A DNA stretch of 64,000 bases from Nibricoccus sp. Lineage in GTDB: Bacteria; Verrucomicrobiota; Verrucomicrobiia; Opitutales; Opitutaceae. The notes beneath the pieces were generated by a model, which was given only the letters and a program-made list of their open reading frames with translations, made no database searches and was not told where the DNA came from. Both the position numbers and the translations under genes were made by a program. This document shows positions 30,301 through 52,138 of the stretch, in pieces; the first letter of the stretch is position 1; each line of letters starts with the position of its first letter. Location of the stretch: positions 2,592,001-2,656,000 of the forward strand of contig JASGHG010000001.1 of assembly GCA_047602425.1 (NCBI GenBank), read 5' to 3'.

Positions 30301-31311
30301 GCGGGTGGTAAGGTTGGTGATCTTGGTATCGTGCAGGCGCATCACGCCGCTGTCCGTGCCGCACCAAAGGTTGCCCTCGATGTCCTCCTGGATGCAAAGA
30401 ATGTGGCTGAGAGCTTCGTTGCCGTTGATCGTGACGGCCTCGATTTTCCCATTGGTGTAGCGGAGGAGTCCGTTGGGCGTGCCGATCCAGAGATTTTCGT
30501 CGCGATCGACGAAGAGGCTGCGGACGACTTCGATCTTGAAACCATTGGCGCCGGGGAATCTTTGAAGCTGGTTGTCTTTTAGGTGATAGAGACCAGTTTT
30601 GCTCGCGAGCCACAAGCCGCCCTCGCGATCCTCCGCGATCGATCTGATTTCAGGGTTGTTCGGGATGCGCGTGGTGTTGTCGAAAATCTCGCGAGTGCCG
30701 TCCTTTTTGATGCGGACCAGGATGCTGCCCATGACGAGGAGGTCGCCATTGCGGGCGCGGTGGAGCGCTTGAAAATACCAGCCGAGATCGTTTTTTGCAC
30801 CGAGTTCGATTTTGGAAATACGACCGTCCTCCCACCGCAGCACGCTGCTTGTATTGGCGATGTACATACCGTTGCCGTCGACAAGCAGACCGGTGATTTC
30901 CGCGTTATCGATTTCGGCGCCGAGGGAAGGTTTGCTCCAGATTCCGTCGTGATACCACAGCACGCCCTTGCGCGTTCCGACCCAAAGCCGGTGGTGCATG
31001 TCTTCCGCAAGAAAGGAAACTTCGTCAAGGGGAAGCCCGCCAGTGTCCTTCGTGGAGAAATTCGTGAAGGTGACGCTGTCGAAACGACTGAGGCCAGCGC
31101 GTGTGCCGAACCACAGGTAGCCATCGCTCGATTGAAAAACACTGCGAACCGCGGAGTAGGGGAGACCATCCGTCATGTTCCAATCTGCGTAGTGATACTG
31201 AGTGGGCGCGCAGGCTGGATCCAACGCGCGCAGCGGCGCGGTCAGCGCGCAAACGAGCATCACCGCCAAGCCAAGGGCATGGCGTGCCTTGAAATTGCAG
31301 GTGTAAGACAC
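27349..31311 (-). CDS. Hybrid sensor histidine kinase (beta-propeller repeats, Y_Y_Y, HisKA, HATPase, two receiver domains)
   Basis: Repeated D..G.LW.GT..GL; YRLDG...[40 protein letters not shown] start at 31311 inferred from the promoter and signal peptide. Confidence 0.93.
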
Positions 31312-34819: not shown

Positions 34820-34848
34820 ATTGGAAGTTAATCAACACCCCCAGCGGT

Positions 34849-37053
34849 ATGCCACTTTCTCCGGATTCCTTCGCCGCCCTCGACGACGTCATCAACCGTC
34901 TCGCGGGCGAATCAATACTTGCCCAATCGGGACGAGACGAGGGTCTCATACCCGCGTACAGCCTGTTGGGCGAACTCTGCGAGCTCAGCGCCGCCGAGCC
35001 CGCTCTGCAAGGCCCGGCCACCGGCATGCGTGCCGAGTTGGAAAAGCTCCTCGACAACGCCAAGCCCTTTGACGACGCAAATCTTTCCGCGCTCCGTTCG
35101 CTCGTCGAATGGCTGCCGAAGGCCCTTGCCGCAGCCAAGGCCGGACAGTCCATTGCCACACCATCTACTCCCGCTAAAGCCGCCCCAGGCGCTTCCTCCA
35201 GCGCCGAGATCACGCCAGCCGTCGACGACGGCCTCGCCGCCAGCGACGTGGTGCTCGATCTGAACCTTGAGGAAAATCGCGAACTGCTCACCGAATTTCA
35301 CGCCGAGGCACTCGATCACCTTCAGCAGATCGAGGCCGCCCTGCTGGCTCTCGACGAGCAACCCGATGACCCTGAGGCGCTCAACTCCATTTTCCGCTCG
35401 TTCCACACGATCAAGGGCGTCTCGGGCTTCCTGCATCTCACGCCGATGCACACGCTCACGCACGAGGTGGAATCGCTGCTCGATCTCGCGCGCAACCGGA
35501 AGCTCCGGCTCAACTCCACCATCATCACGGAAGTTCTCCGCAGCCGCGACGCCGTGCAGGCCATGGTTCAACAAATTACCGCGGCTCTCGAAAACGGCAC
35601 GCTGCCTTCGCAGGTCATCCCTGTGAGTCATCTGATGCGCGCGGTCAAACGTCTGGCGGTTCCGGATAGTTCGTCTACCGCTCCGGTGATTGTGCCGACG
35701 GTGGATTCCGTTCCGCCGGCTCCCGTCGCAATTGCCGACGACGAGGACGAAGACGATACGACCCCGCCCGTCGCGCCTGTCCTTCACTTTAACGAGACGT
35801 CCCCGGCCATTCCCGCTGCGCCGCATGCCGAAACGGCCCCCACGCCTAAATCCGCAGAGGCCAAACCCGCCGCGGCCACCCAGGGCAAATCCGGCAGCTC
35901 CAGCACGGTTCGCGTCAACACCGAGAAACTCGATTCGCTCATGGATGTCGTCGGCGAACTCGTCATCGTGCAAAGCCAGTTGAACGAATCGGCTCGTTGT
36001 CTCGACGGCGAAAATACCGCGCTCGCCCGCAACATCGCCCAATTTGGCCGTCTCACCAAAGAGCTTCAGCACACTTCGATGTCGCTGCGCATGATCCCGA
36101 TCAAGCCGACCTTCCAGAAAATGGAACGCCTGGCTCGCGATCTGGCGCGCGATTTTGGGAAAAAAGTGACTTTCAACGTCTCCGGCGAAGACACCGAACT
36201 CGACCGCACCGTGGTCGAGGACATCGGCGATCCACTTGTGCACATGGTGCGCAATTCCCTCGACCATGGCTTGGAAACCCGTGCCGAACGTGCCACCACC
36301 GGTAAACCCGAGGCGGGCATCGTTTCGCTCAAGGCCTACCATGAGGGTGGCAACATCGTCATCGAACTGGGCGACGACGGCCGTGGCATCAATCCCGACA
36401 AGGTGCTGGCCAAGGCCCGCAAGCAGGGCCTCGTCTCCGAGACAGCCCAGCTTTCGAAGGAGGAAATCCTTAACCTTATTTTCCTGCCTGGATTTTCCAC
36501 CGCCGAAAAGGTCACCGCTGTTTCCGGCCGTGGCGTCGGCATGGATGTCGTGCGCCGCAACATCGAAAAATTGCGCGGCAAGATCGAGATCGAGTCCGAA
36601 GTGGGCAAGGGTTCGACTTTCCGCATTCGTTTGCCCCTCACCATGGCCATCATCGACGGCTTGGTGGTGCGCGTGGGCGACGACCGCTTCATCCTTCCCA
36701 GCACTTCCGTGCAGATGGCATTGCGTCCGGCCAAGGAAGCGCTTTCCACCGTCCAAGGTCGCGGCGAAATCCTCGACCATCGCGGCAAGGTTTTGCCTCT
36801 TCATCGTCTGCATCGCCGATTCGGTATCGCCGGCGCCGTCGAAAATCCTTGGGAGGCGATCGTCGTCATCGTCGAGAGCAACGGGAAAGCGAACGCCCTC
36901 CTCGTCGACGACATGGTCAGCAAGCAGGAAGTCGTCATCAAGCCGCTTGGCGGTTTTCTCCAGAACCTCGCGGGCATCTCGGGCGGCGCCATCCTTGGCG
37001 ATGGCAATATCGCTTTGATTCTTGATCCTGGTTCGCTCTTCGCCGCCGCCTGA
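34849..37053 (+). CDS. cheA: Chemotaxis histidine kinase CheA
   Basis: Hpt FRSFHTIKG, VRVNTEKLDSLMDVVGELV, HMVRNSLDHG, DDGRG, SGRGVGMDVV, C-terminal CheW domain. Confidence 0.97.
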   Translation: MPLSPDSFAALDDVINRLAGESILAQSGRDEGLIPAYSLLGELCELSAAEPALQGPATGMRAELEKLLDNAKPFDDANLSALRSLVEWLPKALAAAKAGQSIATPSTPAKAAPGASSSAEITPAVDDGLAASDVVLDLNLEENRELLTEFHAEALDHLQQIEAALLALDEQPDDPEALNSIFRSFHTIKGVSGFLHLTPMHTLTHEVESLLDLARNRKLRLNSTIITEVLRSRDAVQAMVQQITAALENGTLPSQVIPVSHLMRAVKRLAVPDSSSTAPVIVPTVDSVPPAPVAIADDEDEDDTTPPVAPVLHFNETSPAIPAAPHAETAPTPKSAEAKPAAATQGKSGSSSTVRVNTEKLDSLMDVVGELVIVQSQLNESARCLDGENTALARNIAQFGRLTKELQHTSMSLRMIPIKPTFQKMERLARDLARDFGKKVTFNVSGEDTELDRTVVEDIGDPLVHMVRNSLDHGLETRAERATTGKPEAGIVSLKAYHEGGNIVIELGDDGRGINPDKVLAKARKQGLVSETAQLSKEEILNLIFLPGFSTAEKVTAVSGRGVGMDVVRRNIEKLRGKIEIESEVGKGSTFRIRLPLTMAIIDGLVVRVGDDRFILPSTSVQMALRPAKEALSTVQGRGEILDHRGKVLPLHRLHRRFGIAGAVENPWEAIVVIVESNGKANALLVDDMVSKQEVVIKPLGGFLQNLAGISGGAILGDGNIALILDPGSLFAAA

Positions 37054-37074: not shown

Positions 37075-37953
37075 ATGTCCACTGTTCCCACGTTTGCCGA
37101 AGTCTGCGAAAAAGCCACGAAACTTCCCTGTTCGCCGGCGCTGCTCCCGCGCCTCATTTCCGTGCTGGAGAAGGAGGATTCCTCCATCGATGAGCTCGAG
37201 TCGGTGATTCGCGTCGACACGGTTCTGGCTGCTTCCACGCTGCGTCTTGCCAACTCCGCCTATTTTGCCGCCGGCACGAGTCAGGTGGAAAATTTGAGCG
37301 AGGCGATCATGCGTCTCGGTCAGCGGGAAGTTTACCGGCTTGCCGCGCTTTCGCTAACCAGTCGTTGGATGAATCAAAAAGTTGACGGTTACCGTTGGGA
37401 GCCGGGCGATTTCTGCCGTCTCTCGCTTATGACCGCGGTGGCTGGCGAATACCTCGCGGAAAAATCCGAGCGCGCCGATCCCAAGACGGCCTACACCGCC
37501 GGCCTCGTCCACGAAGTGGGCAAGCTTGCAGTCGCGTATTCATGCGGCGAATACTTCCCCGCCATCCGTGCGCTCCAGACCAGCACCAGTTGCACCTGGC
37601 TCAACGCGGAAAAGCAGATTCTCGGTTACAATAATTCCGAAGTGGGTGCCGAACTCCTCAAACGCTGGAAATTCCCGCCTTCTTTCGTGGCGCTTGGCGC
37701 CCATAATCCACCCACGGCCAGCGCTCCGGCCGAGGTTTTGCCCCTCCTGGTGCATGTTCACGCCGCCAAATACGTCGCGGTTACCATTGGTGTCGGCGTG
37801 GCCGAAGATGGCTTTTTGTACGAGCTCAATGCCCCATTACTCATGGAATGGGGTTTTTCCCCCAATGTGTTGGAGGCGGCCATACCCGAGGTTATCACAC
37901 GGGCTGGCAAGCTCTTGCAGGAAAAACTTTCGCACGGCTCGCTGAGCTTTTGA
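37075..37953 (+). CDS. HDOD-domain protein
   Basis: LP.SP, D.VLAA..LRLANSAYF, AIMRLG, AYTAGLVHEVGKL, EKQILG....VGAELLKRWKFP. Confidence 0.93.
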   Translation: MSTVPTFAEVCEKATKLPCSPALLPRLISVLEKEDSSIDELESVIRVDTVLAASTLRLANSAYFAAGTSQVENLSEAIMRLGQREVYRLAALSLTSRWMNQKVDGYRWEPGDFCRLSLMTAVAGEYLAEKSERADPKTAYTAGLVHEVGKLAVAYSCGEYFPAIRALQTSTSCTWLNAEKQILGYNNSEVGAELLKRWKFPPSFVALGAHNPPTASAPAEVLPLLVHVHAAKYVAVTIGVGVAEDGFLYELNAPLLMEWGFSPNVLEAAIPEVITRAGKLLQEKLSHGSLSF

Positions 37954-38071
37954 AGCGATGAGCTGAGTGCCGTTGTGCGATTCCGGGGGTGGTGGTTCGG
38001 TCGGCTAACCCGGACCCCGCCCCCACCTGAAATGTTTTTTGGACATCCACAAAAATATTTTGAGAAGCCGC

Positions 38072-38098
38072 TAAAGTTTAAAAAAAGCGGACCGATAT
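38072..38098 (+). promoter_or_regulatory. Sigma28-type promoter with no adjacent start codon
   Basis: TAAAGTTT-N11-ACCGATAT versus consensus TAAAGTTT-N11-GCCGATAA. Confidence 0.78.
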
Positions 38099-38105
38099 CA
38101 TACCC

Positions 38106-38188
38106 ATCGCCAAGTGATGCTGGCGAGTATTTGCAGGTGTTGTGGTCAGCCCGGCCTGGTGCTTCAAGCGCAGGCCGGGCGCTTTTTT
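38106..38188 (+). ncRNA. Candidate sigma28-dependent sRNA (~83 nt)
   Basis: Promoter, 5' hairpin TCGCCA/TGGCGA, G/U-rich linker, terminator GCCCGGCCTG/CAGGCCGGGC + T6. Confidence 0.62.
38149..38188 (+). terminator. Intrinsic terminator
   Basis: 10-bp GC-rich stem followed by GCTTTTTT. Confidence 0.85.
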
Positions 38189-38291: not shown

Positions 38292-39857
38292 ATGAAACTG
38301 CTGCCCTTTGTCTGCCTCCTTGTAATGGGTTGGTGTCAGGCGCTTATCGCCGCGACCCCTTACGAAAGTCCGGGCGCACTCCAGCCGCGTGGCCGCATCG
38401 ATGAACTTGTTTTTGCGAAATTGAACCAGCTCAACATCGAGCCGGCGCAAAATTGTTCCGACGCGGTTTTCGTGCGGCGCGTTTACCTCGATGTAATTGG
38501 CACGCTGCCCACGGCGGCTGAAGCTCGCGCGTTTCTCGAAAACAAAGCCATCGACAAACGCCGCACACTTATCGACGAACTTCTGACGCGGGATGAATTT
38601 GCCGAGTATTGGGCGATGAAATGGAGCGATTTGCTCCGCGTGAAAGCCGAGTACCCGATCAATCTTTGGCCGAATGCCGCGCAAGCGTACCATCGCTGGC
38701 TGGTCGAAGCGCTTCATACCAACAAGCCTTTCGATCAATTCGCTCGCGAACTCCTCACCGCGAATGGCAGCAATTTCCGCGTCGGCCCGGTTAACTTCTA
38801 TCGCGCTCTGCAGAGCCGCGATCCGCGAACGATTGCCCGCACGGTCGCACTGACTTTCCTCGGCGCTCGTGCGGAAAAATGGCCCGTCGCCCGGCTTGAC
38901 GGTTTTGCCTCCTTCTTCACCCGTATCGGCTACAAAGCCACCGGCGAATGGAAAGAGGAAATCGTTTTCTTCGATCCGTCAAAAACTCCTCCCGCCGGCT
39001 TTTTCGCCGCCCCGACTTTTCCTGACGGCACGCCCGCCCGATTTACCGACGATCGCGATCCGCGTGAAGTGTTCGCCGACTGGCTGGTAGCCCCGGAAAA
39101 TCCGTATTTCGCCCGCGCCATTGCCAACCGCGTTTGGTTCTGGCTATTGGGTCGTGGCATCGTTCACGAGCCCGACGACTTTCGCGCCGACAATCCGCCT
39201 TCCAATCCCGCGCTCCTCGATCACCTCGCGCAACAACTTGTCGCCGCACGCTACGACTTGAAGGAGCTGTTTCGCTCCATCCTGAATTCCCAGACCTACC
39301 AGCTTTCCTGCGTGCCCCGCTCCGAAAATCCCGAAGCCGCCGCAAACTTCGCCAGTTATCCTCTGAGGCGCCTCGACGCGGAAGTCCTCATCGATGCGAT
39401 CAACCAGATCACGGGTTCTTCCGAGAAATACACCAGCGCCATTCCCGAACCGTTCACCTACGTGCCCGAGGATGTGCGTTCGATTTCGCTGCCCGACGGC
39501 AGCATCACCAGCGGTTTTCTTGAGATGTTCGGTCGTCCACCCCGTGACACCGGCCAGGAGCTCGAACGCAACAATCGTCCAACAGCTAACCAGCGACTGT
39601 ATCTACTTAATTCGACGCAGATCCGCCGCAAACTGGAGCAGGGACCCAAGCTCCAGGAGCTCTGGCGTTCCCATGCGAAACGTCCCGCCGCGTTGGTCGA
39701 TACCCTTTACCTAACCTTCCTCTCCCGCCATCCCACCGACGACGAGCGCAAGACCATTGCGGGTTATGCCAAGACTCCGGGGCTATCTTCGCAGCAGGCC
39801 GCGGTCGACGTCGCCTGGGCCCTGGCCAACAGCGCCGAGTTCCTCCACCGCCATTAA
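38292..39857 (+). CDS. DUF1549/DUF1553 (PSD1-type) exported protein
   Basis: Signal peptide; IDELV, FVRRVYLDVIGTLPT, NPYFARAIANRVW...GRGIV, NPPSNPALLD.LA, RRLDAEVLIDAI, WALANSAEF. Confidence 0.9.
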   Translation: MKLLPFVCLLVMGWCQALIAATPYESPGALQPRGRIDELVFAKLNQLNIEPAQNCSDAVFVRRVYLDVIGTLPTAAEARAFLENKAIDKRRTLIDELLTRDEFAEYWAMKWSDLLRVKAEYPINLWPNAAQAYHRWLVEALHTNKPFDQFARELLTANGSNFRVGPVNFYRALQSRDPRTIARTVALTFLGARAEKWPVARLDGFASFFTRIGYKATGEWKEEIVFFDPSKTPPAGFFAAPTFPDGTPARFTDDRDPREVFADWLVAPENPYFARAIANRVWFWLLGRGIVHEPDDFRADNPPSNPALLDHLAQQLVAARYDLKELFRSILNSQTYQLSCVPRSENPEAAANFASYPLRRLDAEVLIDAINQITGSSEKYTSAIPEPFTYVPEDVRSISLPDGSITSGFLEMFGRPPRDTGQELERNNRPTANQRLYLLNSTQIRRKLEQGPKLQELWRSHAKRPAALVDTLYLTFLSRHPTDDERKTIAGYAKTPGLSSQQAAVDVAWALANSAEFLHRH

Positions 39858-50035: not shown

Positions 50036-52138
50036 TCATTCCGCCTCGAAATCGCTTCGCAGCAAAATTTGGTTGGAGGCTGATCCGACCAAAATTTGAA
50101 AAGTGCCGGGCTCGGTTCTCCAACCGTGCTGTTGCACGTCCCAAAAACCGAGCGCCTGGCTGGTGAGGGCGATTTTGATCGTGCGGGACTCGCCCGACCT
50201 CAACGAAACCCGAGCAAAGCCCTTGAGCTCTTTCTCGGGCCGCGGGACGGACGCCTGAACGTCGCGAACGTACAATTGCGCGATTTCCGCGCCTTCGACC
50301 GGGCTGGTATTGGTGATGACAAATTCCACGGTGAGAGTGCCGCCGGCCTTGAGCGATTTCGCGGACAGCTTCAGGTCGCTGTATTTAAAAGTAGAATACG
50401 AAAGACCGTGTCCAAAAGCGTAGAGCGGCTGGATTTTCTTTGCTTCATACCAACGGTAGCCGACAAAGACGCCCTCCTTGTAATCGATTTTATAGACCGG
50501 GTGGGTCATATCGTTGTCGGGATCCCATCCGGTATAAAGTTTTTCGCCCTTCGGCAGATAGTCCGCGCCCGGTGAGTCTTCGAAATTTTTTTCGATCGTG
50601 ATGGGAAGCTTGCCGGAAGGATTTACTTTTCCACAAAGAATTTCGGCGAGGGCTCGGTTGCCAATTTGGCCGGGATACCAGCCGTAGACGATGGCAGCGG
50701 CGCAATCGTTCCAGCCAGTCATTTTAAGGCCACCGCCGGCGTTGACGATCACGACCGTGCGCGGGTTGAGCGAGGTCACGCGTTGCACGAAGGTCTCGTC
50801 TGGTTCGGGCAAAGCGAAGGGGCGATCCCAACCTTCGTTGTCGAGCATCCCTGTGCTGAGCAGAACGACGTCCGCCTGTGAAATCTGCTCGTCGGTGGGC
50901 GAGGGCACGATTTGCAGCGCATCGCCGTAAACATCCTTCAAGGCCTGGCCAAGTAGGATGGTGTTGTACCCTTCGACATGCGAGGAGCCTCCGCCGCTCG
51001 GAAGTTTTTCAACGAAAGTACCGGTGAGCAGAATCTTTTTGGCGGTATCAGTTTTCAGCGGAAGAATCGCCTCGGAATTTTTCAAAAGGACGATGCCTTC
51101 GCGGGCGGTCTGCAGGGCGATTTTTTCGTGCTCGGGATAATTTTTCAGGAACGATTCGTCTTTGATCGGACGATCGCAGAGGCCCATGGCAATCTCCGTG
51201 CGGAGAATGCTGCGGGCCATGCGGTCGATCTGCGCTTCAGTGACTTTGCCTTGTTGCACGAGTTTAAGGCCGTCGGCCTTGATGAACTTGTCTCCGGGCA
51301 TTTCAAGGTCCTGTCCGGACTTGATGATTTTTTCCGCGTCCCAAACCGACCACCAATCGGTCATGACCAGCCAGCGAAAGCCGAGTTGTTTTTTAAGCAG
51401 TTCGCTGATCACGAATTCGCTCTGGCCAGCCCACTCGCCATTCACCTGGTTGTAAGACGTCATCACGGCCATGGCGCCGGCGGCGATGCCCGCCTTGAAG
51501 GCCGGTAAATAGATCTCGTGCATGGTTCGTTCGTCGAGCACGGAGTTCGAGGTGCGCCGATGGTAGTCGGTGTTGTTGGCCAGGAAATGTTTTAGTGTCG
51601 GGATCGTGCCAGTATCGAGAACGCCGCGAACGTAACGCTCGATCATGCGCGAAATCAGAAACGGATCCTCGCCGAAGTACTCGAAGTTTCGCCCGCATTG
51701 GGCGTGGCGATAGATGTTCATTCCGGGGCCCAGCAGAACGGCGATACCTCCGGCGCGACACTCTTCGCCGATGCTGTGAGCGTACGTGTAGGCGAGGTCG
51801 GGATTCCAAGTCGACGCGAGGCAGAGCGGAGCGGGAAATGCCACCGACTTTTCCAATTGCTGGCTTAACTTTCGGCGAATGTTAACCCCGCCAGTCGCGT
51901 CGGACAGATAGAGTTCAGGCAGCCCGAGCTCCGGATATCCTTTCACAAAAAACATGTTGTGGCCGCGGATCAGTTCGAGTTTTTGCTCGAGCGAGAGTTT
52001 GGCCAGAAGCGCGCCGGCTCGCAGATCGGCGGCTTCGTAGCTGACGGGTGTTTGAAAGGGAATTTCGGAGCTTGTGGTGGCGGCCATGGCAGCGATGAAG
52101 GGAAGAAGAAAAGCGAGCAGCGCAAATCGGGTTTTCAT
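50036..52138 (-). CDS. Glycoside hydrolase family 3 (beta-glucosidase-like)
   Basis: Signal peptide; GRNFEYFGEDP, LKHF, VMTDW, IVLLKN, FGHGLSYSTF, FN3-like C-terminus. Confidence 0.95.
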   Translation of the reverse strand: MKTRFALLAFLLPFIAAMAATTSSEIPFQTPVSYEAADLRAGALLAKLSLEQKLELIRGHNMFFVKGYPELGLPELYLSDATGGVNIRRKLSQQLEKSVAFPAPLCLASTWNPDLAYTYAHSIGEECRAGGIAVLLGPGMNIYRHAQCGRNFEYFGEDPFLISRMIERYVRGVLDTGTIPTLKHFLANNTDYHRRTSNSVLDERTMHEIYLPAFKAGIAAGAMAVMTSYNQVNGEWAGQSEFVISELLKKQLGFRWLVMTDWWSVWDAEKIIKSGQDLEMPGDKFIKADGLKLVQQGKVTEAQIDRMARSILRTEIAMGLCDRPIKDESFLKNYPEHEKIALQTAREGIVLLKNSEAILPLKTDTAKKILLTGTFVEKLPSGGGSSHVEGYNTILLGQALKDVYGDALQIVPSPTDEQISQADVVLLSTGMLDNEGWDRPFALPEPDETFVQRVTSLNPRTVVIVNAGGGLKMTGWNDCAAAIVYGWYPGQIGNRALAEILCGKVNPSGKLPITIEKNFEDSPGADYLPKGEKLYTGWDPDNDMTHPVYKIDYKEGVFVGYRWYEAKKIQPLYAFGHGLSYSTFKYSDLKLSAKSLKAGGTLTVEFVITNTSPVEGAEIAQLYVRDVQASVPRPEKELKGFARVSLRSGESRTIKIALTSQALGFWDVQQHGWRTEPGTFQILVGSASNQILLRSDFEAE

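Follow-up and report, generated by a model that had tools for sequence, protein, structure and literature searches.

The 64-kilobase (kb) stretch of the Nibricoccus sp. genome analyzed here, termed the window, contains at positions 38072 to 38188 of the plus strand an element with the organization of a small RNA (sRNA) gene. A sigma28 (FliA)-type promoter (38072 to 38098) is made up of a −35 box at 38072 to 38079, an 11-nucleotide (nt) spacer and a −10 box at 38091 to 38098. The predicted sRNA of ∼83 to 85 nt extends from 38104, a 5′ end placed from promoter spacing, to 38188. It consists of a 5′ hairpin (38107 to 38126), whose invariant 8-nt loop, AGUGAUGC at 38113 to 38120, makes it a candidate seed; a G/U-rich 22-nt linker (38127 to 38148) with an invariant 14-nt core at 38134 to 38147; and an intrinsic terminator (38149 to 38188) formed by a GC-rich stem-loop at 38149 to 38180 and a run of six U residues at 38183 to 38188. 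Folding of the sRNA gave a z score of −2.65, with 1/200 shuffles being equally stable. The element is present as a single copy in this genome. An original prediction, made from the letters of the window, had proposed a stand-alone sRNA gene at this site; all of the parts claimed (both boxes, 5′ hairpin, 22-nt linker and terminator) were located where it had placed them, as was a CAACACC sequence at 34833. In what follows, G000 is the Nibricoccus sp. genome carrying the window, other G-numbers are other assemblies, and genomes with the sRNA are termed carriers.

Conservation, promoter class and structure

A BLASTN search of 41 relatives detected the element in 4/4 genus mates and in three other genera. 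Within the genus, the match spans the −35 box through the U-run. A linker pattern allowing 2 mismatches matched 25/401 genomes of the family, comprising 14 true copies and 11 chance matches. A covariance model (R1) built from 33 sequences gave one strong match per genome in 13/150 family genomes and 5/63 genera, to which G084 was added. In total, the sRNA was found in 15 Opitutaceae species genomes of five genera, with one copy each. A scan of named genomes produced 13 matches, 11 of them true (with titles naming Opitutaceae, Nibricoccus or Verrucomicrobia) and 2 due to chance. In metagenomes, 25/25 matches to a linker-plus-terminator pattern also had the loop hairpin, which was absent from the pattern; four of these matches were duplicates and one was truncated within the promoter. 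An order-wide search of 150 genomes with R1 detected no real copy outside the family, the two weak matches being without loop and linker, and none of 17 matches in viral contigs had the loop or the terminator. Matches to a promoter-plus-loop pattern in the non-carriers among 401 genomes were at control level, and 0/28 of the chance loci inspected (30 of ∼100 matches) had a stem of more than 3 pairs. A further weak R1 match (E = 0.006) at locus L138 (G007:C1:1673728-1673812, minus strand) has a similar terminator and neither loop nor linker; this locus may be another small RNA.

The 14-nt linker core was identical in all 15 species genomes. The searches selected for the linker, so that linker variants are undersampled; conservation of the loop and promoter is free of this bias. 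Conservation of promoter and linker in relatives, on which the original prediction had staked itself beforehand, was thus observed for both, and the proposed stand-alone sRNA gene, headed by its sigma28-type promoter, was borne out by conservation that includes the linker. Rfam gave no match in the window at the gathering score and, at E values of up to 10, only a C4 match at 37979 to 38030 (E = 0.57), which lies outside the element on a hairpin following the HDOD gene and is probably due to chance. In a tree of RpoN sequences the distribution of carriers needed 1 change, with weak support (44/1), and the carriers may, on this sequence comparison, form one clade.

The bipartite sigma28 motif was matched in 32/34 distinct homologous loci, among which both boxes are kept while the spacer drifts, and the loop lies a fixed 13 to 18 nt beyond the −10 box. 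The original prediction had described this promoter as the closest sigma28 match in the window. By consensus count the match is indeed 14/16 positions, but another site, at 50535 and within an opposite-strand gene, ties with it; genome-wide, 12 sites have 14/16 and none exceeds this count. By weight matrix the promoter ranked third in the genome, the matrix being partly trained on the same promoter. Using gene starts from a purpose-written dicodon caller (4,006 genes in the Nibricoccus sp. genome), the sigma28 motif precedes 21/4,006 genes, including flagellin, motA and chemoreceptor genes. It was found before 6/27 flagellin, motor and chemotaxis genes versus 15/3,979 others (Fisher p = 3e-9), a test that was not blind because several of the promoters had been seen before the pattern was written. 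FliA scored above the family cut-off in 13/15 carriers. The assembly of another carrier, G001, is 72% complete and without fliA, and its flhA contig stops where fliA would come next. Six good sigma28-type sites have no called gene within 400 nt downstream (G000:C1:4443841, 535594, 3649427, 1929498 and 4491205 on the plus strand and 534833 on the minus strand) and are possibly further sRNAs or missed small genes. On the minus strand of the window (31345 to 31311), an in-frame GTG of a hybrid histidine kinase gene is preceded, at ∼7 nt, by a sigma28-type promoter, a position that suggests a nearly leaderless messenger RNA (mRNA).

The loop was invariant in 33/33 aligned sequences and had not been specified in the collection scans. 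Double-sided changes were present in 4/6 pairs of the 5′ stem and 3/10 pairs of the terminator, or 7/16 pairs overall. Of the alignment cells at paired positions, 98.9% were paired, a level reached by 0/500 shuffles, in a test inflated by the relatedness of the 33 sequences; slid controls were 25 to 41% paired. In 10/15 species, those of the four genera other than that of Nibricoccus sp., an extra hairpin (−7 to −16.5 kcal/mol) precedes the linker and the predicted length is 102 to 121 nt; this middle hairpin is absent from the genus of Nibricoccus sp. In single-sequence ensembles the probability of the 5′ hairpin was 0.89 to 1.0 in the 10 long forms and 0.03 to 0.47 in the short forms (5/5 genomes of the Nibricoccus sp. 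genus), the low values arising because the loop and linker can join through G-U pairs. The linker had been described as unpaired; single-sequence folding pairs it with the loop, while covariation backs the 5′ hairpin. No conserved reading frame was found among the 26 copies translated, and the element is, by this comparison, apparently non-coding.

Flanking genes and host context

Upstream of the element in the window, on the same strand, lie cheA (34849 to 37053) and an HDOD-domain gene (37075 to 37953), and downstream a DUF1549/DUF1553 gene (38292 to 39857), all assigned by Pfam; the latter is outside the element and starts an operon 104 nt past the U-run. Folding detected a GC-rich hairpin at 37985 to 38024 (plus strand), 3′ of the HDOD stop codon, and a similar one is present in the same-genus loci and in G006. 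This hairpin is probably the end of the cheA-HDOD mRNA and would set the sRNA promoter apart. The same 64-kb window also contains fliF to fliR, with fliA located 40 kb downstream (G000:C1:2670272). The original prediction had seen no plausible gene after the promoter. An open frame from a GTG at 38142 does reach the DUF1549 gene, but the downstream gene is not conserved in relatives. An HDOD gene was the upstream neighbour in 26/34 loci. Downstream, 8 of the 34 loci have DUF1549 and 2 have other, unrelated genes on the same strand; in 12 the next gene is a head-on chemotaxis gene no more than 600 nt away and in 2 a distant head-on gene, while nothing was identified in 10. Nine of the head-on genes are presumably CheD-like, a name given from a motif and not from a profile scan. 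The element thus occurs beside differing neighbours, and in both orientations relative to the HDOD gene; with its own predicted intrinsic terminator, it is independent of the flanking genes.

Hfq (PF17209) was detected in 0/5 carriers, with control rings in 5/14. The Pfam model of FlgM had a match in 0/5 genomes searched (three carriers and two non-carriers), where a divergent FlgM located elsewhere could escape. In the flagellar cluster flgJ lies directly against flgN, which leaves no space for flgM between them (L119:3424-4332), and FliA is widespread in Opitutaceae. The leaders of the Nibricoccus sp. genome are C/A-rich and without a Shine-Dalgarno signal. A putative sigma54-type promoter motif was present before fliA in 13/13 carriers versus 2/31 non-carriers, and sigma54-type motifs were found before flgB, flhB, flgF and fliA. 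These motifs point to a sigma54-then-sigma28 flagellar cascade in the host and to a hierarchy that, as read from them, is rewired in the carrier clade. The fliA leader is 50 to 125 nt long in 13/13 carriers (G000:C1:2670139-2670272, L118; leaders L219 to L258), and in other Opitutaceae fliA is mostly close behind its upstream gene. Carrier G024 (C3:570000-610000) has four flagellins, fliD, cheA and the sRNA, yet no flhA or true fliA, reflecting an assembly gap or a real loss. CsrA and FliW are encoded in the Nibricoccus sp. genome, with fliW-csrA following flgL (L119:6775-7497). Four tandem flagellin genes (L122:9513-13463) share a leader with an AAGGA motif right before the start codon, and CsrA-FliW control of flagellin is likely from this arrangement.

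Candidate pairing partners of the loop and linker

The only target signal came from the invariant 8-nt loop, which the original prediction had overlooked. In a de novo ranking of 2,560 degenerate 5-mers in the fliA leaders of carriers, ATC[AG]C, the complement of the loop, came first, and its degenerate position is the one at which a G-U wobble is allowed. This motif was present in the fliA leaders of 13/13 carriers versus 7/31 non-carriers, against a background of 1,070/4,005 leaders (27%) in Nibricoccus sp. A 6-nt loop complement was found in 13/13 versus 5/31 and a 7-nt complement in 7/13 versus 1/31. These leader counts omit G138, in which there was no fliA match in the stretch examined, and G024, which has no true fliA. 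Further loop complementarity flanked 86% of 37 fliA sites versus 47% of 1,250 background sites, and loop-fliA pairing separated carriers from non-carriers (−6.9 versus −4.2 kcal/mol). Of 22 genes with a sigma54-type promoter in the Nibricoccus sp. genome, fliA was the only one with the motif in its leader, and it had the top linker score of the ortholog groups represented in two or more other carriers.

Pairing energies were calculated with a purpose-written duplex-plus-accessibility script, not with IntaRNA or CopraRNA, and coding regions were included in the genome-wide screen only to +30. Several 6-mers complementary to the linker were mildly enriched in leaders (ranks 237 to 430 of ∼4,096). 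The cheA gene, which the original prediction had put forward as an example of a target, ranked 3,411/4,005, and the site was lost in the cheA leaders of four other carriers, so this suggestion was dropped. A number of further candidates were rejected. An 11-nt match beside the smpB start codon was 5 to 8 nt long in three genus mates and absent in other genera, and an 11-nt match at +31 of a 154-amino-acid FlgN-like gene was lost in 12/12 other carriers. The clusters of seven other carriers revealed no site of at least 8 nt in common for the hook, basal-body, motor and flagellin genes. Linker pairing with rpoN did not differ between 15 carriers and 15 non-carriers (p = 0.48). Strong linker complementarity right before the start codon (−15.8 to −18.7 kcal/mol) was seen in rpoN leaders L281 to L283, of only three genomes of genus g4. 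With an outer-membrane gene of the alginate-export family (PF13372), linker pairing was stronger in eight non-carriers than in ten other carriers (p = 0.97); the gene was near the top for both seeds in a screen of two genomes, and its loop pairing (p = 0.02) was driven by g4. A double-motif search in five carriers gave matches that were mostly coding. Two genes located behind sigma28 motifs are candidate targets, a chemoreceptor gene (G000:C1:2190342) with a 9-nt match at −8 and the hybrid histidine kinase gene (window position 31311) with a 10-nt linker match at +7, in codons 3 to 6.

Interpretation and relation to known systems

These results are, on balance, best explained by an independent sRNA gene that belongs, in one Opitutaceae clade, to the late flagellar regulon under FliA/sigma28 and whose product base pairs with mRNAs, fliA being the best lead; we hold this combined reading to be somewhat probable. 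That the element specifies a functional non-coding RNA is highly probable. Action through base pairing is moderately likely, while the status of fliA as a direct target is tentative and rather doubtful. We infer that FliA would transcribe an RNA of ∼85 nt (102 to 121 nt in other genera) ending at its own terminator. In the most likely reading the loop and the 14-nt linker would act as seeds that pair, without Hfq, with the translation-start regions of mRNAs, and this pairing would lower translation of the targets. The presumed sigma54-driven fliA leader has between one and six AUC(A/G)C sites available to the loop, and pairing there would constitute negative feedback where no FlgM was found. 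A more specific version, in which the sRNA is a sigma28 brake replacing FlgM, with the loop pairing with the fliA leader and the linker covering its C/A-rich start without Hfq, is unlikely to be correct as a whole. If true, the brake would be a direct sRNA autorepression of the flagellar sigma factor, arisen together with the rewired fliA promoter.

Several observations weigh against this interpretation or parts of it. Most of the 248/401 family genomes with fliA are without the sRNA, which is therefore an addition in one lineage, and the carrier G024, with an assembly that is 98% complete, has neither fliA nor flhA. The G/U-rich linker had been thought to be specially suited to the leaders; across the Nibricoccus sp. 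genome it paired with them no better than 8 shuffles of itself. Near-perfect complements of the 14-nt linker were no commoner than those of a reversed control in 15 genomes, and the two-genome screen against G024 (494 ortholog pairs, drawing on 1.26 megabases [Mb] of the 3.6 Mb of that genome) gave results similar to those of 12 shuffled controls. The fliA gene was chosen after the fact, from ∼40 ortholog groups, by a linker score that does not tell the 13 carriers apart from the 31 non-carriers (p = 0.21). Its loop signal comes mostly from g4 (4 to 6 copies; 0/500 shuffles, 5/5 genomes), besides which the excess of sites is significant only in g3, by pairing energy. The excess in g56 is borderline (p = 0.06 to 0.16), and the Nibricoccus sp. 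genus has one copy per fliA leader, within the range of shuffles (p = 0.12 to 0.47); fliA of Nibricoccus sp. itself ranks 639/4,005 for loop pairing. The contrast between carriers and non-carriers amounts to about one event, because the carriers may be one clade, and is confounded because the fliA gene of carriers has its own long leader (13/13 versus 2/31). Finally, a small share of the stretch is present in eight public runs. In four RNA-library runs of 12 listed, for which only contigs were available, the contigs extend across the promoter or beyond the terminator, so that they reveal no more than the presence of relatives in those samples.

The FliA-driven RNA could instead bind or titrate a protein, the loop and linker being protein-recognition sites and not seeds. 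Loops that do not vary, carried on stems that covary, are typical of protein sites, and the structure fits this proposal, which also gains from the lack of a linker target in the searches described above and from the CsrA and FliW genes of the Nibricoccus sp. genome. It is, however, the complement of the loop and not the loop itself that is enriched in fliA leaders, and protein binding is on the whole an unlikely, though serious, alternative. A CsrA sponge of the CsrB/RsmZ type was excluded because GGA is missing from 10/15 copies, including that of Nibricoccus sp.; the others have 1 or 2 GGA, within the optional hairpin. The lack of a start-region target for an invariant 14-nt linker, together with the several other sigma28-like sites without a called gene after them, would also be expected of an RNA sponge that pairs with another small RNA in place of mRNAs, but no near-perfect 14-nt complement recurred above control across the 15 carriers, making this improbable.

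There is a similarly slight chance that no functional RNA is made and that the element combines a terminator shared by converging chemotaxis genes with a conserved DNA site or an idle promoter. The head-on chemotaxis gene of 12/34 loci would agree with this, as would the run contigs, in which no discrete transcript is apparent; the covarying 5′ stem, invariant loop, optional middle hairpin and 13- to 18-nt spacing would all be left unexplained. The original prediction had itself offered an attenuator, or riboswitch-like leader, of the DUF1549 operon as an alternative. The same-strand operon begins close to the U-run in Nibricoccus sp., and the 5′ part of the RNA is able to refold with the linker, but the terminator stays intact in the predicted alternative fold. 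DUF1549 follows the element in only 8/34 loci, two loci have unrelated same-strand genes in its place and 12 have the nearby head-on gene. Because the downstream gene varies and is often head-on, an attenuator was excluded, and we consider it very improbable. Translation of a small protein from the loop AUG, which all 26 translated copies have, is the remotest of these proposals, being refuted by the changes of frame across copies: the linker is in three different frames, and 7/26 copies have a stop codon before the end of the linker or within the terminator.

The element represents a previously unlisted family of stand-alone, sigma28-type sRNAs in five Opitutaceae genera, which possibly feeds back on fliA. 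In the open-licence literature, no description of this sRNA and no sigma28-dependent sRNA pairing with fliA mRNA were found, and no regulatory sRNA was listed for Verrucomicrobiota. Rfam indicated no homology to the Campylobacter jejuni sRNAs, the Escherichia coli set or GcvB, all discussed below, whether each of these has an Rfam model being unchecked. The setting is one of hosts without detected Hfq, a Shine-Dalgarno signal or detectable FlgM, and, if the fliA lead is true, the sRNA would provide a testable explanation of how such hosts restrain sigma28 activity when FlgM is missing.

GcvB uses a G/U-rich single-stranded segment to pair with C/A-rich translation enhancers (PMC3879156). The Opitutaceae linker is likewise G/U-rich in a genome with C/A-rich leaders that lack a Shine-Dalgarno signal; the promoter class differs from that of GcvB, and pairing of this kind could not be demonstrated for any set of targets. 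In E. coli, UhpU, MotR, FliX and FlgO are sRNAs that are sigma28 controlled, derived from untranslated regions (UTRs) and Hfq bound, and tune flagellar synthesis (PMC10578931). Sigma28 control and a tuning of flagella are proposed also for the Opitutaceae sRNA, which, unlike this set, has its own promoter and terminator in hosts that show no Hfq. The sigma28-dependent, Hfq-independent sRNAs CjNC1 and CjNC4 of C. jejuni (CJnc10 and CJnc170, the latter being FlmR) share more of its features (PMC4626219, PMC11187230): a stand-alone sigma28 promoter, a short RNA, a conserved pairing region (a putative one in Opitutaceae), a terminator and independence from Hfq, in a host with a sigma54-then-sigma28 cascade such as the motifs suggest for Opitutaceae. 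Compared with these sRNAs, the Opitutaceae sRNA is longer and single copy, combines a covarying 5′ hairpin with a second invariant segment, and is without a conserved site in hook or basal-body leaders, in a host without detected FlgM. By analogy, the Opitutaceae sRNA would work most like CjNC1/CjNC4 (FlmR) and less like the UTR-derived set of E. coli, and it would add Verrucomicrobiota to enterobacteria and Campylobacter as groups whose motility is under sigma28-driven RNA control.
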